A stretch of DNA of 64,000 nt, taken from the NCBI RefSeq assembly GCF_001677475.2, contig NZ_CP015229.1, one strand, 5' to 3'. Shown piece by piece: positions 6,612 through 22,738 of the stretch (the stretch's first letter is position 1; the number at the start of each line of letters is the position of its first letter). Source of the DNA: Escherichia coli. GTDB taxonomy: Bacteria; Pseudomonadota; Gammaproteobacteria; Enterobacterales; Enterobacteriaceae. The notes beneath the pieces are model-generated. The model made no database searches. It was not told where the DNA came from and saw only the letters and a program-made list of their open reading frames with translations. A program made the translations under genes and the position numbers.

Positions 6612-7019
6612 ATGAAAAACGAAACCTTCGGTGCTCGCCTCTTACATAGGCGTAAAAAATTAAAACTGTCTCAGGCCGCATTAGGTAAGCTGGTCAAAGT
6701 GGCTCACGTAACAATTTCTCAATGGGAAAGAGATGAAACACAGCCGGCGGGGAAAAGATTATTCGCACTGAGCCAAGCGCTTCAGTGCTCACCGACTTGG
6801 CTTCTTTTTGGGGATGAAGATAAACAACCAGGCGAACCGATCCCGGATAATCAGCCAGCCATTCTGACAGAAGATCAAAAAGAGTTACTTCAACTGTTCG
6901 ACGCACTGCCTGAGTCAGAGCAAAAGGCCCTGTTGTCAGAGATGCGTGCTCGAGTTGAAAATTTCAACAAACTTTTTGAAGAACTACTCAAAGCTCGCAA
7001 AAGAAGCGCAAACAAATAA
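6612..7019 (+). CDS. dicA: DicA-like prophage repressor (XRE-family HTH)
   Basis: 135 aa; strong pattern match to DicA as I recall it (LFALSQALQCSPTWLLFGDEDKQP, LFDALPESEQ, MRARVENFNKLFEELLKAR). Confidence 0.85.
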   Translation: MKNETFGARLLHRRKKLKLSQAALGKLVKVAHVTISQWERDETQPAGKRLFALSQALQCSPTWLLFGDEDKQPGEPIPDNQPAILTEDQKELLQLFDALPESEQKALLSEMRARVENFNKLFEELLKARKRSANK

Positions 7020-7221: not shown

Positions 7222-7377
7222 ATGGATACTATCGATCTTGGTAACAACGAATCTCTGGTGTGCGGCGTGTTCCCAAACCAGGACGGCACATTCACCGCGA
7301 TGACGTATACCAGAAGCAAAACGTTTAAAACCGAAGCTGGCGCGCGTCGCTGGCTGGAAAGAAATTCAGGTGAGTGA
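7222..7377 (+). CDS. ydfA: YdfA-like small protein (51 aa)
   Basis: Size and position (first gene of the dicB operon) match Qin ydfA; the ORF track 7168..7377 includes an upstream extension. Confidence 0.65.
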   Translation: MDTIDLGNNESLVCGVFPNQDGTFTAMTYTRSKTFKTEAGARRWLERNSGE

Positions 7378-7378
7378 T

Positions 7379-7507
7379 ATGGATTTCGACGCAATCATGG
7401 AAAAGGCTTACGAAGAATACTTCGAAGGCCTTGCCGAAGGCGAAGAAGCTCTCAGCTTCAGTGAGTTTAAACAGACGCTTTCCAGTTCGGCAAAATCTAA
7501 CGACTGA
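7379..7507 (+). CDS. ydfB: YdfB-like small acidic protein (42 aa)
   Basis: Hand-translated MDFDAIMEKAYEEYFEGLAEGEEALSFSEFKQTLSSSAKSND; the ATG lies 1 nt after the ydfA stop; size and position match Qin ydfB. Confidence 0.55.
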   Translation: MDFDAIMEKAYEEYFEGLAEGEEALSFSEFKQTLSSSAKSND

Positions 7508-7536
7508 TAAGAGAAGCGGCACCGCGAGGAATCAGT

Positions 7537-7752
7537 ATGCAGAAACGAGAACCCGTCATCATCGCACCAGACTATACCGAGGATGAAATTTACGAATGGA
7601 TGTGCGGAAAGATACGCGCCATTAATTACCTGAAGCAGGCCGCTGACTACAAAGAGCGCCTCTCTAAAGAACTGGTGTCAGCGGAGCAGGATATTACCAC
7701 TCTGGCAAAAAGCGCGGCATTAAACGTTTCGCGAGTGACTGAAAACTACTGA
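7537..7752 (+). CDS. ydfC: YdfC-like protein (71 aa)
   Basis: ORF track; size and position match Qin ydfC. Confidence 0.6.
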   Translation: MQKREPVIIAPDYTEDEIYEWMCGKIRAINYLKQAADYKERLSKELVSAEQDITTLAKSAALNVSRVTENY

Positions 7753-7841: not shown

Positions 7842-8288
7842 CTAACCACAAAGAAATCGCATCAATTTGGATTTTGTGGGCAACTTCTCTTGTTGTTCGA
7901 TGGAGACGCCCATTTTGATCTGTGTTTTTAAGATCGCAATATCTTTAAGTGATGACCAAATATGACCATCTGTTTTTTCCAGAATTTTTAACTGAATTTT
8001 CAATTCCGAATCAGAATATTTTTCTGCATCATCAAAAAGCTGCAAATATTCTGCGGATTTTCTCATGGCATTACCTGACTTTTGTCCGAATCCATAAATC
8101 GTTTGGACGGTTGCGATCACAACAATAAAAACGCCAGAAATTTCCGGAATGAATCCGCCAATGACAGATGAACCGAGGATAACACTCACTACTGAGAGAA
8201 GTTTATCGAGACGACCAGTCGCTACAGAAAATAGTTGCTCAAGAAAATAGCCATATAAAATTCTGTCAAGAATATCATCCCGGTCCAT
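7842..8288 (-). CDS. Two-TM membrane protein encoded antisense inside the dicBF operon (148 aa); candidate superinfection-exclusion or abortive-infection protein
   Basis: ORF track; AT-rich codon usage distinct from its flanks; AGGTGA Shine-Dalgarno 7 nt upstream of the ATG; two adjacent hydrophobic helices (about residues 35 to 75) and a charged C-terminal domain; sits in extra DNA absent from the K-12 Qin ydfC-dicF interval as I recall it. Confidence 0.6.
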   Translation of the reverse strand: MDRDDILDRILYGYFLEQLFSVATGRLDKLLSVVSVILGSSVIGGFIPEISGVFIVVIATVQTIYGFGQKSGNAMRKSAEYLQLFDDAEKYSDSELKIQLKILEKTDGHIWSSLKDIAILKTQIKMGVSIEQQEKLPTKSKLMRFLCG

Positions 8289-8746: not shown

Positions 8747-8799
8747 ATTCTGGTGACATTTGGCGGTATCAGTTTTACTCCGTGACTGCTCTGCCGCCC
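8747..8799 (+). ncRNA. dicF: DicF small RNA
   Basis: The sequence tTCTGGTGACaTTTGGCGGTATCAGTTTTACTCCGTGACTGCTCTGCCGCCCTTTTT matches the 53-nt DicF sequence from memory with about two substitutions, ends in a GC hairpin plus U-run, and lies about 185 bp upstream of dicB as in Qin. Confidence 0.65.
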
Positions 8800-8983: not shown

Positions 8984-9172
8984 ATGGAAAAGTTATCATG
9001 CAATGCCAGTACGTCTGAACTTCGTTTCGAAATTGGCGTTATCACTGGAGAAAAAACATTTATTGAAGACGCCATTAAGCAGAGAAAACTCGAGCAGGAC
9101 CTGTTAAATGAAGTATGCATTCCTTCAATGCTGGCTCGTCTGGACCTGCTGCAAAAAGGATATAAACAATGA
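8984..9172 (+). CDS. dicB: DicB-like cell division inhibitor (62 aa)
   Basis: Internal start MEKLSCNASTSELRFEIGVITGEKTFIEDAIKQRKLEQDLLNEVCIPSMLARLDLLQKGYKQ aligns along its length with K-12 DicB (FEIGV, EDAI.KRK, SMLARL); the ORF track 8876..9172 is an upstream extension. Confidence 0.85.
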   Translation: MEKLSCNASTSELRFEIGVITGEKTFIEDAIKQRKLEQDLLNEVCIPSMLARLDLLQKGYKQ

Positions 9173-9360
9173 ATACAACATTTGCACTCGTTCTGACAGT
9201 TTATCTTGTTTCCGGCGAATCTCTTGAGCTGGTGACTGGCTTATACGGTTCAATGAAAGAATGCATGGCTGCCGCAGCAGAACAAAAAATTCCCGGTAAC
9301 TGTTATCCGGTAGATAAAGCTACTCACACTAATAATAACGAAATACCGGCGGGACTTTAA
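9169..9360 (+). CDS. ydfD: YdfD-like small protein (63 aa) with an N-terminal hydrophobic segment
   Basis: Immediately follows dicB with a 4-bp overlap, as ydfD does in Qin; 63 aa with a signal/TM-like N-terminus. Confidence 0.6.
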   Translation: MNTTFALVLTVYLVSGESLELVTGLYGSMKECMAAAAEQKIPGNCYPVDKATHTNNNEIPAGL

Positions 9361-9453: not shown

Positions 9454-11925
9454 ATGAATAAAGTCTTTATTTGCGCAGCTATTCCGGACGAACAGGCAAT
9501 AAAGGAAGAAGGTGCAGTCGCTGTGGCCTCTGCCATTGAAGCCGGTGACGAGCGCCGCGCCCGTGCCAAATTTACCTGGCAATTCCTGGAGCAATATCCG
9601 GCTGCTCAGGACTGCGCTTATAAATTTCTTGTCTGTGAGGATAAACCCGGCATGCCCCGCCCTGCCATTGACTCCTGGGATACCGAATATATGCAGGAAA
9701 ACCGCTGGGATGAGGAATGCGCTTCCTTTGTTCCGGTCGAACCAGAATCCGATCCGATGAACGTCAATTTTGACAAGCTGTCCCCTGAAGTACAGAACGC
9801 GGTCCTGATTAAGTTCGGTACATGTGAAAACATCACCGTTGATATGGCGATTGACGCTCAGGAATTACTGCAGGAAGACGTGGCTACCTTTGACGGGCAT
9901 ATCGTTGAAGCACTGATGAAAACGCCTGAAATTAACGCTATGTATCCGGAACGCAAACTGTTCGCTATCGGATGGGTTAAACACAAATGTAAGCCGGGTA
10001 CCAAATGGACCGAAATTCAGGCTGAATTACGTAACTGGAAAAAACGGCAGGACGCAGAGCGCAAAGAGACTGGAAAATACACGTCTGTTGTTGATCTTGC
10101 CCGCGCCAGAGTCAACCGACATAGCACTGAAAACTCAGCAGAAAAAATCAATTCTGTCACTGCCGCCATTCGTCGCGAATACAAGCAGACCTGGAAAACA
10201 CTGGATAAAGAACTGGCCTATGCTCTCTGGCCTGGTGACATTGATGTCCGGAACATTGACGGCAGCATCCATAGATGGGCAAAAAATGAAGTTATCGACA
10301 AGGATCGCGAAGACTGGAAACGCATCTCCGCATCAATGCGCAAACAGCCTGATGCGATTCGCTACAGCCGTCAGACGATTTTTGGCCTTGTTCGTGAACG
10401 TCCGGTCGACATTCACAAAGACCCCGTGGCACTGAATAAATACATCACTGAATACCTTGCGACAAAGGGCGTGTTTGAAGATGAAGAAGAAGATCAGAGC
10501 GTTGTTGATGTTCTCCAGTCGTCAGCATCACAAACTGATGCAGTGGAAACTGAAGTACCTGATACCCAAAAAAATGAAAGCGCGCTGGAAGATGAATCAT
10601 CTGTAGAGCGTGAGGGGCCGTTCTACTTCCTCTTCAGCGATAAGGATGGAGAAAAATACGGTCGCGCAAACAAACTTTCAGGTCTGAATAAGGCGCTCGC
10701 TGCAGGGGCTACTGAAATCACGAAAGAAGAATATTTTGCTCGAAAAAACGGTACATACTCAGGTTCACAACAAAATACTGGTGCATCTGACACGACCGCA
10801 CAACCAGAGCCGGTAAAAGTTACTGCTGACGAAGTGAACAAAATTATGCAGGCAGCCAATATCAGCCTGCCTGACGCCAGTCAGTTGCTCGCTGCATCAC
10901 GTGGTGAATTTGTTGCAGGGATTAGCGACCCGAATGATCTGAAATGGATTAAAGGGATCCAGACCCGCGATTCTATGAACCAAAACCAGCAAGAAACGGA
11001 ACAGAACGACCAGAAAGCGGAACAAAGCAGCCCAAATGCGCAACAAAACGAGCCAGAAACGAAACAATCCGAACCAGTAGTGCAACAGGAACCGGAAAAA
11101 GTCTGCACCGCCTGCGGTCAGAGCGGTGGCGGCAACTGCCCCGATTGTGGCGCGGTCATGGGCAACGCAACATACCAGGAAACATTCGATGAAGAGAATC
11201 AGGTTGAAGCTCAGGAGAATGATCCGGAGGAAATGGAAGGCGCTGAACATCCACACAAGGAGAACACTGGCGGCAATCAGCATCACGCCAGCGATAGTGA
11301 AACTGGCGAGACGGCAGATCCCTTAATTACGGTGAACAGTCATCACGTTATCACATCCACCAGCAGGACGTGTGACCATCTAATGATCGACCTTGAAGCC
11401 ATGGGAATAAATCCTGATGCCCCGATTATCTCAATAGGTGCAATATTTTTCGATCCGCAAACCGGAGATATGGGACCGGAATTTAGTAAGACTGTCGATC
11501 TGGAAACTGCTGGCGGAGTCATTGATCGGGACGCCATTAAATGGTGGCTTAAGCAATCACGCGAAGCGCAATCTGCCATTATGACCGATGAAATCCCGTT
11601 AGATGATGCACTGTTACAATTGCGGGAATTTATCGACGAAAACTCCGGTGAATTTTTTGTTCAGGTCTGGGGAAATGGAGCAAACTTCGACAACACGATT
11701 TTGCGCCGTTCATACGAACGGCAGGGGATCCCCTGCCCGTGGCGTTACTACAACGATCGCGATGTGCGCACAATCGTTGAGCTGGGGAAAGCCATAGACT
11801 TCGATGCCAGAACTGCTATCCCATTCGAAGGTGAGCGCCATAATGCACTTGATGACGCTCGTTACCAGGCAAAATACGTTTCAGCTATCTGGCAAAAACT
11901 GATCCCGAGTCAGGCTGATTTTTAA
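9454..11925 (+). CDS. Large prophage exonuclease in the RecE position (823 aa) with a C-terminal DEDDh-type 3-prime-5-prime exonuclease domain
   Basis: C-terminal motifs MIDLEAMG (Exo I), WGNGANFDNTIL (Exo II) and HNALDDARYQAKY (Exo III); central low-complexity Q/E-rich linker with C-x2-C...C-x2-C; occupies the ydfE/recE position between dicB-ydfD and xis-int. Confidence 0.75.
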   Translation: MNKVFICAAIPDEQAIKEEGAVAVASAIEAGDERRARAKFTWQFLEQYPAAQDCAYKFLVCEDKPGMPRPAIDSWDTEYMQENRWDEECASFVPVEPESDPMNVNFDKLSPEVQNAVLIKFGTCENITVDMAIDAQELLQEDVATFDGHIVEALMKTPEINAMYPERKLFAIGWVKHKCKPGTKWTEIQAELRNWKKRQDAERKETGKYTSVVDLARARVNRHSTENSAEKINSVTAAIRREYKQTWKTLDKELAYALWPGDIDVRNIDGSIHRWAKNEVIDKDREDWKRISASMRKQPDAIRYSRQTIFGLVRERPVDIHKDPVALNKYITEYLATKGVFEDEEEDQSVVDVLQSSASQTDAVETEVPDTQKNESALEDESSVEREGPFYFLFSDKDGEKYGRANKLSGLNKALAAGATEITKEEYFARKNGTYSGSQQNTGASDTTAQPEPVKVTADEVNKIMQAANISLPDASQLLAASRGEFVAGISDPNDLKWIKGIQTRDSMNQNQQETEQNDQKAEQSSPNAQQNEPETKQSEPVVQQEPEKVCTACGQSGGGNCPDCGAVMGNATYQETFDEENQVEAQENDPEEMEGAEHPHKENTGGNQHHASDSETGETADPLITVNSHHVITSTSRTCDHLMIDLEAMGINPDAPIISIGAIFFDPQTGDMGPEFSKTVDLETAGGVIDRDAIKWWLKQSREAQSAIMTDEIPLDDALLQLREFIDENSGEFFVQVWGNGANFDNTILRRSYERQGIPCPWRYYNDRDVRTIVELGKAIDFDARTAIPFEGERHNALDDARYQAKYVSAIWQKLIPSQADF

Positions 11926-11977
11926 TGTTCAACCCTAATTGCCGCTAACCGTATATAGTTAGCGGCGGTTATGAGAT

Positions 11978-12187
11978 ATGGCTATGAGCAGCTTATTTTT
12001 AACCGAAGATGAATTGCTAATATTAACGGGCTGCAAATATGCAAGCCACCAGCGAAAATGGTTAATGGAAAACGGGCTTCCGTTCTATACCAATCGTAGT
12101 GGCAAACCGATTGTCAGCCGGGATCTATTTACCTGCAATAAAACTTTACCACCACGCGAGGTAGAGCCGAATTTTGGTGCAATCTGA
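11978..12187 (+). CDS. Excisionase-like small DNA-binding protein
   Basis: 69-aa ORF immediately upstream of and overlapping the integrase start; the position is typical of xis. Confidence 0.5.
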   Translation: MAMSSLFLTEDELLILTGCKYASHQRKWLMENGLPFYTNRSGKPIVSRDLFTCNKTLPPREVEPNFGAI

Positions 12188-13212
12188 TGGGAAGACGAAG
12201 GAAAAATCCTGAACACGAAAAATTACCTCCAAATGTATACCCAAATAAATATAGTTATGTATGGAAACCAACATCCAGAGAATCTGTCACACTAACCGCC
12301 ATCAAGGATGGTTTAGCTGCTTTATGGAAAAAGTATGAGGAAACTGTAAATAATCGCGATCGCGCAATGACATTCGGTCGCTTGTGGGAAAAATTCCTCG
12401 CCAGCGCCTATTACAGTGACCTCAGTCCAAGAACACAAAAAGATTATCTGCAACATCAAAAAAAGTTGCTTGCCGTATTCGGTAAGGTGCCGGCAGATTC
12501 CATAAAACCAGAACACATCCGTCGATACATGGACAAGAGAGGGGAACAGAGTAAAACGCAAGCCAACCATGAAAAAAGCAGTATGTCCCGCGTTTACAAT
12601 TGGGGGTATGAGCGAGGGTACGTGAAGGGTAACCCATGTGCAGGTGTAAGTAAATTCAAGGCCAAAAACCGCGAACGATATGTAACCGACAAAGAATACC
12701 AGGCAGTATTAAGTGTTGCACCTCTTCCTGTTTTTATCGCAATGGAAATTGCCTATCTGTGTGCAGCGAGGGTTTCCGATGTGTTATCACTGAAATGGGA
12801 GCAGATTGGAAACGACGGGATCTTTATCCAGCAAGGGAAAACAGGGAAAAAACAGATAAAAGCATGGAGTCCACGATTACAGGCGGCGATCGAAAAAGCA
12901 AAACAGTTACCAACATCTGCCTATGTAATCAGCAATCAATATGGCAACCGATATATGTACAAAGGTTTTAACGAAATGTGGGTAGAAGCAAGAAATCACG
13001 CAGGCAAAATTTCAGGTATTTTAACCGACTTCACCTTTCATGATCTGAAGGCGAAAGGAATTTCAGACTATGAAGGAAGCAGCCGGGATAAGCAACTTTT
13101 CTCTGGTCACAAAACCGAAGGGCAAGTGCTAATCTATGACAGAAAGGTTAAAGTTTCACCAACACTTGATGTCCCGTTACCTGATAATATTCCAAGAAAA
13201 TATTCCAAGTAA
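12187..13212 (+). CDS. int: Tyrosine-type phage integrase
   Basis: 341 aa; C-terminal catalytic region with H-x-x-R (FTFHDLKAKG) and the tyrosine motif (VLIYDRK); ends about 50 bp from the 3-prime end of tRNA-Ser. Confidence 0.9.
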   Translation: MGRRRKNPEHEKLPPNVYPNKYSYVWKPTSRESVTLTAIKDGLAALWKKYEETVNNRDRAMTFGRLWEKFLASAYYSDLSPRTQKDYLQHQKKLLAVFGKVPADSIKPEHIRRYMDKRGEQSKTQANHEKSSMSRVYNWGYERGYVKGNPCAGVSKFKAKNRERYVTDKEYQAVLSVAPLPVFIAMEIAYLCAARVSDVLSLKWEQIGNDGIFIQQGKTGKKQIKAWSPRLQAAIEKAKQLPTSAYVISNQYGNRYMYKGFNEMWVEARNHAGKISGILTDFTFHDLKAKGISDYEGSSRDKQLFSGHKTEGQVLIYDRKVKVSPTLDVPLPDNIPRKYSK

Positions 13213-13264: not shown

Positions 13265-13354
13265 TGGCGGAGAGAGGGGGATTTGAACCCCCGGTGGAGT
13301 TGCCCCCACTCCGGTTTTCGAGACCGGTCCGTTCAGCCGCTCCGGCATCTCTCC
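13265..13354 (-). tRNA. serU: tRNA-Ser (anticodon CGA), serU-like
   Basis: Reverse complement reads GGAGAGATGCCGGAGCGGCTGAACGGACCGGTCTCGAAAACCGGAGTGGGGGCAACTCCACCGGGGGTTCAAATCCCCCTCTCTCCGCCA, a 90-nt class II tRNA with a CGA anticodon and long variable arm. Confidence 0.9.
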
Positions 13355-14543: not shown

Positions 14544-14734
14544 TATGAACGCCATCACCATTTTCCCCTCGATTATAAAACTTGAGTTATTCAGTAGTCT
14601 CCCCTCTTGCAACTCACACCCAAAACTGCCTAACGAAAAGTTATTAATTTTCAATCATATTGCTATCAGGATTTACATTTTTTCGCTGTGCTAGAAAGGG
14701 CGCATTTATGTTAGCTCGTTCAGGGAAGGTCAGC

Positions 14735-22738
<8,004 letters not shown>

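Follow-up and report, generated by a model that had tools for sequence, protein, structure and literature searches.

An intact YdfE orthologue in an Escherichia coli prophage, predicted to join a RecE-family scaffold to a DEDDh exonuclease head

The window analysed here is a stretch of 64,000 nucleotides (nt) from Escherichia coli (RefSeq assembly GCF_001677475.2, contig NZ_CP015229.1), of which 13.3 kb belong to a prophage. The gene under study, at 9454-11925 on the plus strand, closes a Qin-type early-left operon in which dicA-ydfABC-dicF-dicB-ydfD are followed by this exonuclease gene, xis-int and tRNA-Ser. It is an open reading frame (ORF) of 823 codons with an ATG start, a GAGG Shine-Dalgarno sequence 9-10 nt upstream of the ATG and no internal stop. 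PHROG 2082 ('exonuclease') spans residues 1-823 of the 823, and the RefSeq gene of strain GB089, annotated 'exonuclease', is 99.8% identical to it. Compared with three other E. coli copies, which diverge by 10-15% in DNA and are likewise open over the full frame, the gene has an overall ratio of nonsynonymous to synonymous substitution rates (dN/dS) of 0.17-0.25. We describe the product as an 823-amino-acid (aa) RecE-family scaffold protein with a predicted DEDDh 3'-5' exonuclease head, and the gene as the intact orthologue of ydfE, which in K-12 is a pseudogene.

The exonuclease head is the DEDDh (DnaQ-like, Rv2179c-like) domain at aa 642-816 (11377-11901, plus strand, as for all protein parts given below). 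Pfam PF16473 (Rv2179c-like) matches aa 642-813 with E = 3.7e-65 over model positions 2-177 of 177, overlapped by a weak RNase_T match. It makes up the last fifth of the protein, and the namesake of the family, Rv2179c, acts on RNA. All three motifs of the DEDDh superfamily are present, namely Exo I (D646/E648), Exo II (D746, in GANFD) and Exo III (H796-x4-D801), which together supply four acidic residues and the motif III histidine. The five catalytic positions are 95-100% conserved among 98 complete homologous domains with 53-98% identity to that of the window, and dN/dS over the domain is 0.12-0.20. The AlphaFold2 model has a confidence (predicted local distance difference test, pLDDT) of about 90 over aa 642-816, and the best matches of the head in a Foldseek search of the PDB were T4 DexA (E = 5e-10), RNase T, oligoribonuclease (Orn)/REXO2 and ERI-type nucleases, all with a probability of 1.00, which is the RNase H-like fold of DnaQ type in the predicted model. 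The closest solved structure is that of DexA (PDB 8kel/8ken; phmmer E = 7.5e-5, Foldseek target TM-score 0.66-0.73), which has the same DEDDh catalytic set and about 20% identity to the head, but is a stand-alone protein of 227 aa. The first-pass annotation, made from the sequence of the window, had read three DEDDh motifs in the C-terminus and proposed structure prediction as a check; since the catalytic residues are conserved, the fold is confident and the structural matches are to DexA, RNase T and Orn, the motifs are not coincidental. The head is thus predicted to be a metal-dependent 3'-5' exonuclease.

The same annotation had held that the head is not of the PD-(D/E)XK type found in Rac RecE, and this was borne out. 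A Pfam scan of the protein gave no DUF3799 match, i.e. the PD-(D/E)XK domain is absent, and BLASTP aligns the protein with Rac RecE no further than aa 626 (592 in RecE). The NCBIfam equivalog model for RecE, NF007259, reaches 282.7 bits where its cut-off is 1269, the match covering aa 444-626 alone (model positions 437-603 of 877). Because the head is DEDDh and not PD-(D/E)XK, the predicted polarity is 3'-5' and not 5'-3'.

In front of the head the relation to RecE is extensive. BLASTP pairs residues 262-626 with 278-592 of Rac RecE (E = 1e-64), with an identity of about 80% at aa 470-626, a stretch that includes a CxxC..CxxC element and an acidic linker, moderate identity at aa 262-345 and remote similarity at the N-terminus. 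The first domain shows no relation to RecE by BLAST, and the relation is detected by profile comparison: with non-overlapping alignments of YdfE-type and RecE-type N-termini, aa 14-205 matched RecE_N by hhalign with 95% probability (E = 2.6e-8, 185 columns). These alignments show residues 1-626 as homologous, at the level of sequence and profile, to RecE 1-592. The first three quarters of the protein are therefore a RecE paralogue and the head alone differs; with its DEDDh C-terminus, the protein is a scaffold of the RecE family whose nuclease head has been swapped. The earlier suggestion that the gene occupies a RecE slot, made from its position, is thereby extended to the protein itself. The two proteins are of similar length (866 aa in Rac RecE, 823 aa here) and share a non-catalytic N-terminal region of about 590 residues, whereas the PD-(D/E)XK (DUF3799-type) domain and the overlapping or adjacent recT gene that also characterise RecE are lacking at this locus. 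A clean head swap is displayed by a protein of phage vB_EcoS-640R1, which is 59% identical to RecE over 50-591 and then continues into the same DEDDh head.

The full-length AlphaFold2 model divides the scaffold into folded modules separated by predicted disordered linkers at aa 222-235, 346-383, 438-456, 500-546 and 572-636. The first module, D1 (aa 1-221, 9454-10116), is of the YdfE_N type, an alpha/beta and helical fold with pLDDT mostly above 90, remotely homologous to the RecE N-terminus by hhalign, with a dN/dS of 0.13-0.17 over aa 1-261. It is followed by D2 (aa 247-340, 10192-10473), a helical core corresponding to RecE aa ~278-360 (pLDDT 94-98, dN/dS 0.09-0.15), which is common to nearly all sampled RecE/YdfE scaffold proteins; the region aa 262-345 occurs in most relatives irrespective of their head. 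An acidic disordered linker (aa 341-388, 10474-10617; pLDDT below 50, 22% E and 12% D, dN/dS 0.8-1.6) leads to a mini-domain of beta-hairpins and two helices (aa 389-437, 10618-10764; pLDDT 91-96, dN/dS 0.05-0.07), found in many YdfE-type relatives. The segment at aa 458-506 (10825-10971), with two helices (458-482) and the motif SDPNDLKWIKGIQTRD, is close to Rac RecE by BLASTP and lies within the partial NF007259 match.

The linker and cysteine features of the C-terminal half had also been noted in the first-pass annotation. The Q/E-rich linker is real by composition: the Q/E/N-rich, low-complexity disordered segment at aa 507-546 (10972-11091) has a pLDDT of 32-36, and Q and E amount to 24% and 14% over aa 497-546, with 20% E over aa 567-626. 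The cysteine pairs are present as C551-x2-C554-x7-C562-x2-C565 in a zinc-ribbon-like Cys4 element (aa 547-570, 11092-11163; pLDDT about 77), to which Pfam DZR gives a weak match (E = 0.3). As a signature of the family this element was rejected. Rac RecE also carries it, and among 53 diverse scaffold-family representatives it is found in one, P0121, a close relative of the window protein. On this distribution, the Cys4 element is a lineage-specific insert shared with Rac RecE and confined to the E. coli lineage. The last linker (aa 571-636, 11164-11361) is acidic and disordered by composition and pLDDT, and the alignment with RecE places the head-swap junction at its end (aa ~626, RecE aa ~592).

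In the comparison with the three E. coli copies, the folded modules have a dN/dS of 0.05-0.20 and the linkers one of 0.4-1.6, which shows that purifying selection acts on every folded module. Abrupt shifts of the synonymous rate from one part of the gene to another point to intragenic recombination between modules.

A search with residues 1-345 against 1.84 billion representative proteins returned 178 relatives. Sorted by domain, the long relatives showed either N-terminal type joined to a head of one of four kinds, namely the DEDDh domain, the RecE PD-(D/E)XK nuclease, a head of about 280 residues (18 representatives) and a head of about 230 residues (at least 13, counted as near-complete matches). 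Some relatives bear an annealase head of Rad52 fold on the same scaffold. The head of about 230 residues (in P0126, P0255, P0209 and others, and at L013:5001-7109) belongs to PHROG 26058 and is directly followed by xis-int; it gave no Pfam or PDB match. The DEDDh domain is also found without the scaffold: stand-alone versions of 180-190 aa, 58-86% identical, occur in E. coli, Salmonella and Klebsiella, and also beside xis/int in temperate phages. Stand-alone DEDDh domains that are 53-59% identical occupy this slot near xis/int in the temperate enterobacterial phages Lys8385Vzw and Citrobacter phiNP (L005:3998-4570 and L006:4022-4495), and the nuclease therefore keeps its place with or without the scaffold.

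The remainder of the operon follows the order known from K-12 and from the near-identical GB089 prophage. A DicA-like repressor gene of 135 aa stands at the head of the operon region (6612-7019, +; an ORF in the position of K-12 dicA and of the helix-turn-helix gene of GB089), followed by homologues of ydfA, ydfB and ydfC (7222-7752, +; ORFs matching the GB089 and K-12 annotation). The small RNA DicF is at 8748-8799 (+), where the Rfam RF00039 match of 77 bits exceeds the gathering score of 48 (E = 3.8e-16). Then come dicB (8984-9172, +; a full-length match to PHROG 1251, and the GB089 annotation) and a ydfD-like DUF1482 gene directly 5' of the exonuclease gene (9169-9360, +; GB089 annotation). 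Downstream, an xis-like DUF4224 (excisionase-like) gene (11978-12187, +) begins 52 nt past the exonuclease stop codon and is followed by a tyrosine integrase gene (12187-13212, +), both being ORFs with counterparts in the GB089 annotation. The attachment site of the prophage is the tRNA-Ser(CGA) beside mtfA (13265-13354, -; ARAGORN and Rfam tRNA). The opposite strand carries, to the left of the operon, cro/cII-like, O-like and P-like replication genes.

This arrangement bears directly on ydfE. In the Qin prophage of K-12 the corresponding place, with the same dicB and ydfD neighbours, holds a 768-nt 'exonuclease' pseudogene cut by the insertion element IS2, followed by a truncated integrase gene; the break comes after codon 256, and the rest, including the nuclease, is lost. 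The K-12 fragment is 83% identical to the window protein over aa 1-256. Because of this identity over 256 residues in the same operon, the window gene is, judged from alignment and gene order, the intact form of ydfE, as the first-pass annotation had supposed. Orthology and synteny place the protein in the YdfE family (YdfE_N PF27430, YdfE_C PF27432), and the family domains are seen through representative P0121, which is 85-87% identical to the window protein and carries Pfam YdfE_N, YdfE_C and Rv2179c-like.

Of 5426 complete E. coli genomes, 3510 (65%) have full-length copies, annotated 'exonuclease' or '3'-5' exonuclease', with a median of 2 matching places per genome carrying the gene. The protein is therefore among the most widespread of E. 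coli prophage proteins and often multi-copy. The gene is already known as an entity, as the Prokaryotic Genome Annotation Pipeline (PGAP), PHROGs and Pfam all cover the family, and the architecture is not novel to the databases or the literature. No functional study of ydfE or of DEDDh nucleases in prophages was found in the searchable literature. Lambdoid recombination (Rec) modules are reported to include DnaQ-like 3'-5' nucleases, and DnaQ-type nuclease genes that belong to no recognisable Rec module were described as sporadic and 'very near int', with their role left open (PMC12315714, Genome Res 2025). The window locus fits this description exactly, and no discussion of a fusion to a RecE-type scaffold was found in the accessible text of that paper.

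No annealase gene lies between the repressor gene and int in the window, where xis-int follows the exonuclease gene directly, and the first-pass statement that no recT/bet-like gene is adjacent holds. It had also asked for a search elsewhere in the prophage; in the GB089 prophage no annealase is annotated anywhere, though a RusA resolvase is encoded. The head and the partner go together in the relatives sampled. All four PD-(D/E)XK-headed loci (Rac, L017, L020 and L012) have recT immediately downstream, the neighbour at L012 matching a RecT-like PHROG with E = 3.5e-101, whereas recT is adjacent in 0 of 11 DEDDh-headed contexts (the window and ten others, from several integration sites), in which the gene leads straight into xis/int or reaches the contig end. 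The absence of recT is thus the rule for the sampled DEDDh-headed relatives and not an accident of the window locus.

Chi sites (GCTGGTGG) were found on the minus strand at 57, 115, 1541, 2322, 11357 and 12046, i.e. six in the 13.3-kb prophage part and all co-oriented, while the remaining 50.7 kb of the window also holds six. The GB089 prophage has 13 Chi sites, 11 of which are co-oriented. By the lambda paradigm, such an orientation would suit entry of RecBCD from the late-gene side of the prophage, and the prophage fits the lambdoid class with no Rec module and high Chi outlined in PMC12315714.

From these data we consider it probable that the window protein is a RecE-family scaffold in which a DnaQ/DEDDh head has replaced the PD-(D/E)XK nuclease by module exchange at the acidic linker, and that it is induced with the phage and trims 3' ends without an annealase. 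In the lysogen the gene would not be expressed, and relief of the DicA-type repressor would switch it on along with dicF, dicB and ydfD. The head would then remove nucleotides singly wherever a 3'-OH end is free, through two-metal-ion hydrolysis in which H796 is the likely general base. DNA ends are the most likely substrate, since the scaffold bears other DNA-end enzymes and no solved structure is closer than that of DexA, a DNA exonuclease of T4. The scaffold of about 630 residues, with its long flexible linkers, may position the head or oligomerise the protein. The protein would not be one half of a RecET-like exonuclease-annealase pair, and would act alone or with host RecBCD/RecA; its task may be to trim 3' ends while a Chi-rich, annealase-free phage, which presumably recombines by means of host RecBCD/RecA, grows lytically.

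The enzymatic part of this proposal is much firmer than the biological role, which is its weakest step, and several points weigh against the proposal. No biochemical or genetic data on the window protein were found in the searchable literature, and the function of the scaffold is unexplained even for RecE. Among the 50 matches listed when the full-length model was compared with the PDB by Foldseek, the DEDDh domain alone was matched, and a profile of 48 scaffold family members had zero matches among PDB sequences. The association with recT rests on about 15 sampled contexts and is not a census, and Chi enrichment pertains to the phage and not to the gene. An RNA substrate is possible, as the Pfam family takes its name from an exoribonuclease and the head resembles RNase T and Orn closely in structure. 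Host DnaQ-like exonucleases, moreover, generally inhibit homologous recombination according to PMC12315714, and therefore the role of a recombination helper is not the obvious one.

We regard it as unlikely that the protein is instead an anti-phage nuclease resembling EcD ('HREX'), the E. coli homologue of DexA, which would digest the 5-hydroxymethylcytosine DNA of T-even phages from 3' ends. That DexA of T4 is the closest solved structure to the head speaks for such a role, as does dicB, the neighbouring gene, which confers phage resistance. In a weak phmmer mapping at about 20% identity, Y766 stands opposite W152 of DexA, and D782/D784 lie near the expected place of D169. Plasmid-borne EcD protects E. 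coli against T4, and Escherichia accounts for 38% of 3196 bacterial DexA homologues (PMC12153337), many of which may belong to the prophage family of the window. Identity with EcD was nevertheless rejected: like DexA, EcD is a stand-alone, scaffold-free protein from another genomic setting, it begins with MIDTET (primer sequence in the supplement of PMC12153337), and the 120 closest homologues do not include it; nor does the window contain that primer sequence. The signature of HREX/EcD is that the tetramer contact made by D90 in DexA is lost while W152 and D169, which contact 5-hydroxymethylcytosine, are kept. At the D90 position EcD has Ala, whereas Asp stands there in the window protein (D718) and in 77 of 98 relatives, so that on this weak, ~20%-identity alignment the signature is not seen. 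The PADLOC search for defence components gave no significant match (E = 0.029 over 23 residues). Furthermore, the gene lies in a repressed early-left operon and should therefore be silent in the lysogen, and a defence role leaves the RecE scaffold unexplained.

It is also doubtful that the protein is a 3'-5' exoribonuclease acting on host RNAs or on the early-left transcript, for instance in DicF maturation or in decay of the xis-int message. The naming of the Pfam family after Rv2179c of M. tuberculosis, the strong structural matches to RNase T, oligoribonuclease, REXO2 and ERI-type RNases, the operon shared with a processed small RNA, DicF, and a stable hairpin between the gene and xis would all be in line with this. 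However, RNase T and Orn also cut DNA, and their matches therefore cannot discriminate between substrates, while a DNA exonuclease heads the structural matches and the scaffold elsewhere bears DNA-end enzymes, i.e. the RecE nuclease and the Rad52-fold annealase. DicF processing depends on the host enzymes RNase E and RNase III, and no link of the window protein to it was found.

A true RecE equivalent, resecting for an annealase that another prophage or the host supplies in trans and forming a two-component recombinase with it, is rather improbable. The genomic slot and the scaffold are those of RecE, and with a median of 2 matching places per carrier genome several lambdoid prophages often coexist and could therefore supply the partner; host exonuclease III, a 3'-5' enzyme, supports annealing-based in vivo cloning. 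But a 3'-5' exonuclease leaves 5' tails, and annealases of the RecT/Beta type, as in RecET and Red, load on 3' tails. The recT counts given above (0 of 11 against 4 of 4) and the lack of an annotated annealase in the same prophage point the same way. That the gene is a decaying, functionless remnant of defective prophages, as the IS2 truncation in K-12, a frameshift in one phage record and, in GB089, pseudogenes that include the neighbouring integrase gene and others of the prophage might suggest, is very improbable and is largely refuted by the selection analysis, with 823 codons open in the window and in three divergent copies, a low dN/dS in all folded modules, conserved catalytic residues and full-length copies in about two thirds of complete genomes.

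If the preferred reading, a RecE-family scaffold with an exchanged DEDDh head, is taken together with the range of heads in the family, it is tempting to speculate that the RecE/YdfE N-terminal region is a general delivery platform of the early-left operons of temperate phages, with DNA-end modules interchangeable at the disordered linker and the DEDDh version serving an annealase-independent pathway in RecBCD-dependent, Chi-rich phages. We put this forward tentatively. On such a platform the PD-(D/E)XK nuclease may be paired with recT, the DEDDh nuclease may work without an annealase, and the Rad52-fold annealase and the fourth head, of about 230 residues, may be further alternatives; trimming of 3' tails so as to steer host recombination is one possibility. 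'RecE-2' proteins without a nuclease domain have been described with an unexplained role (PMC12315714), and would, if the platform idea is true, be scaffold-tethered annealases. Should the scaffold carry annealases generally, the recognition of phage recombination modules in genomes would need revision.

Whatever its role, the intact gene settles what K-12 ydfE formerly was, and it adjoins the well-studied dicBF genes; about two thirds of complete E. coli genomes carry the protein. The label 'exodeoxyribonuclease VIII', still found on many phage copies, is wrong for the YdfE/DEDDh family because the predicted polarity is opposite and there is no annealase partner. The N-terminal 590 residues of RecE matter for linear-linear recombineering, and the clean head swap offers an experimental handle on this unexplained region.

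Three further features of the window are of interest. Between ydfC and dicF there is an ORF of 148 aa on the opposite strand (7842-8288, -; PHROG 6315), which is hypothetical in GB089 and absent from the K-12 Qin operon, and which resembles a moron that has been inserted there. The gap separating the stop codon of the exonuclease gene from the start of xis contains a near-perfect hairpin at 11936-11971 (+; GCCGCTAAC ... GTTAGCGGC), with a folding energy of -21 kcal/mol (z = -3.4 against shuffles) and no T-run after it; the expression of xis-int could be controlled there by RNA processing or other regulation. Beyond mtfA and tRNA-Asn, an ORF of 2692 aa made of Ig-like repeats (14660-22738, +) is intact in the window, while the GB089 copy is annotated as frameshifted with an internal stop.

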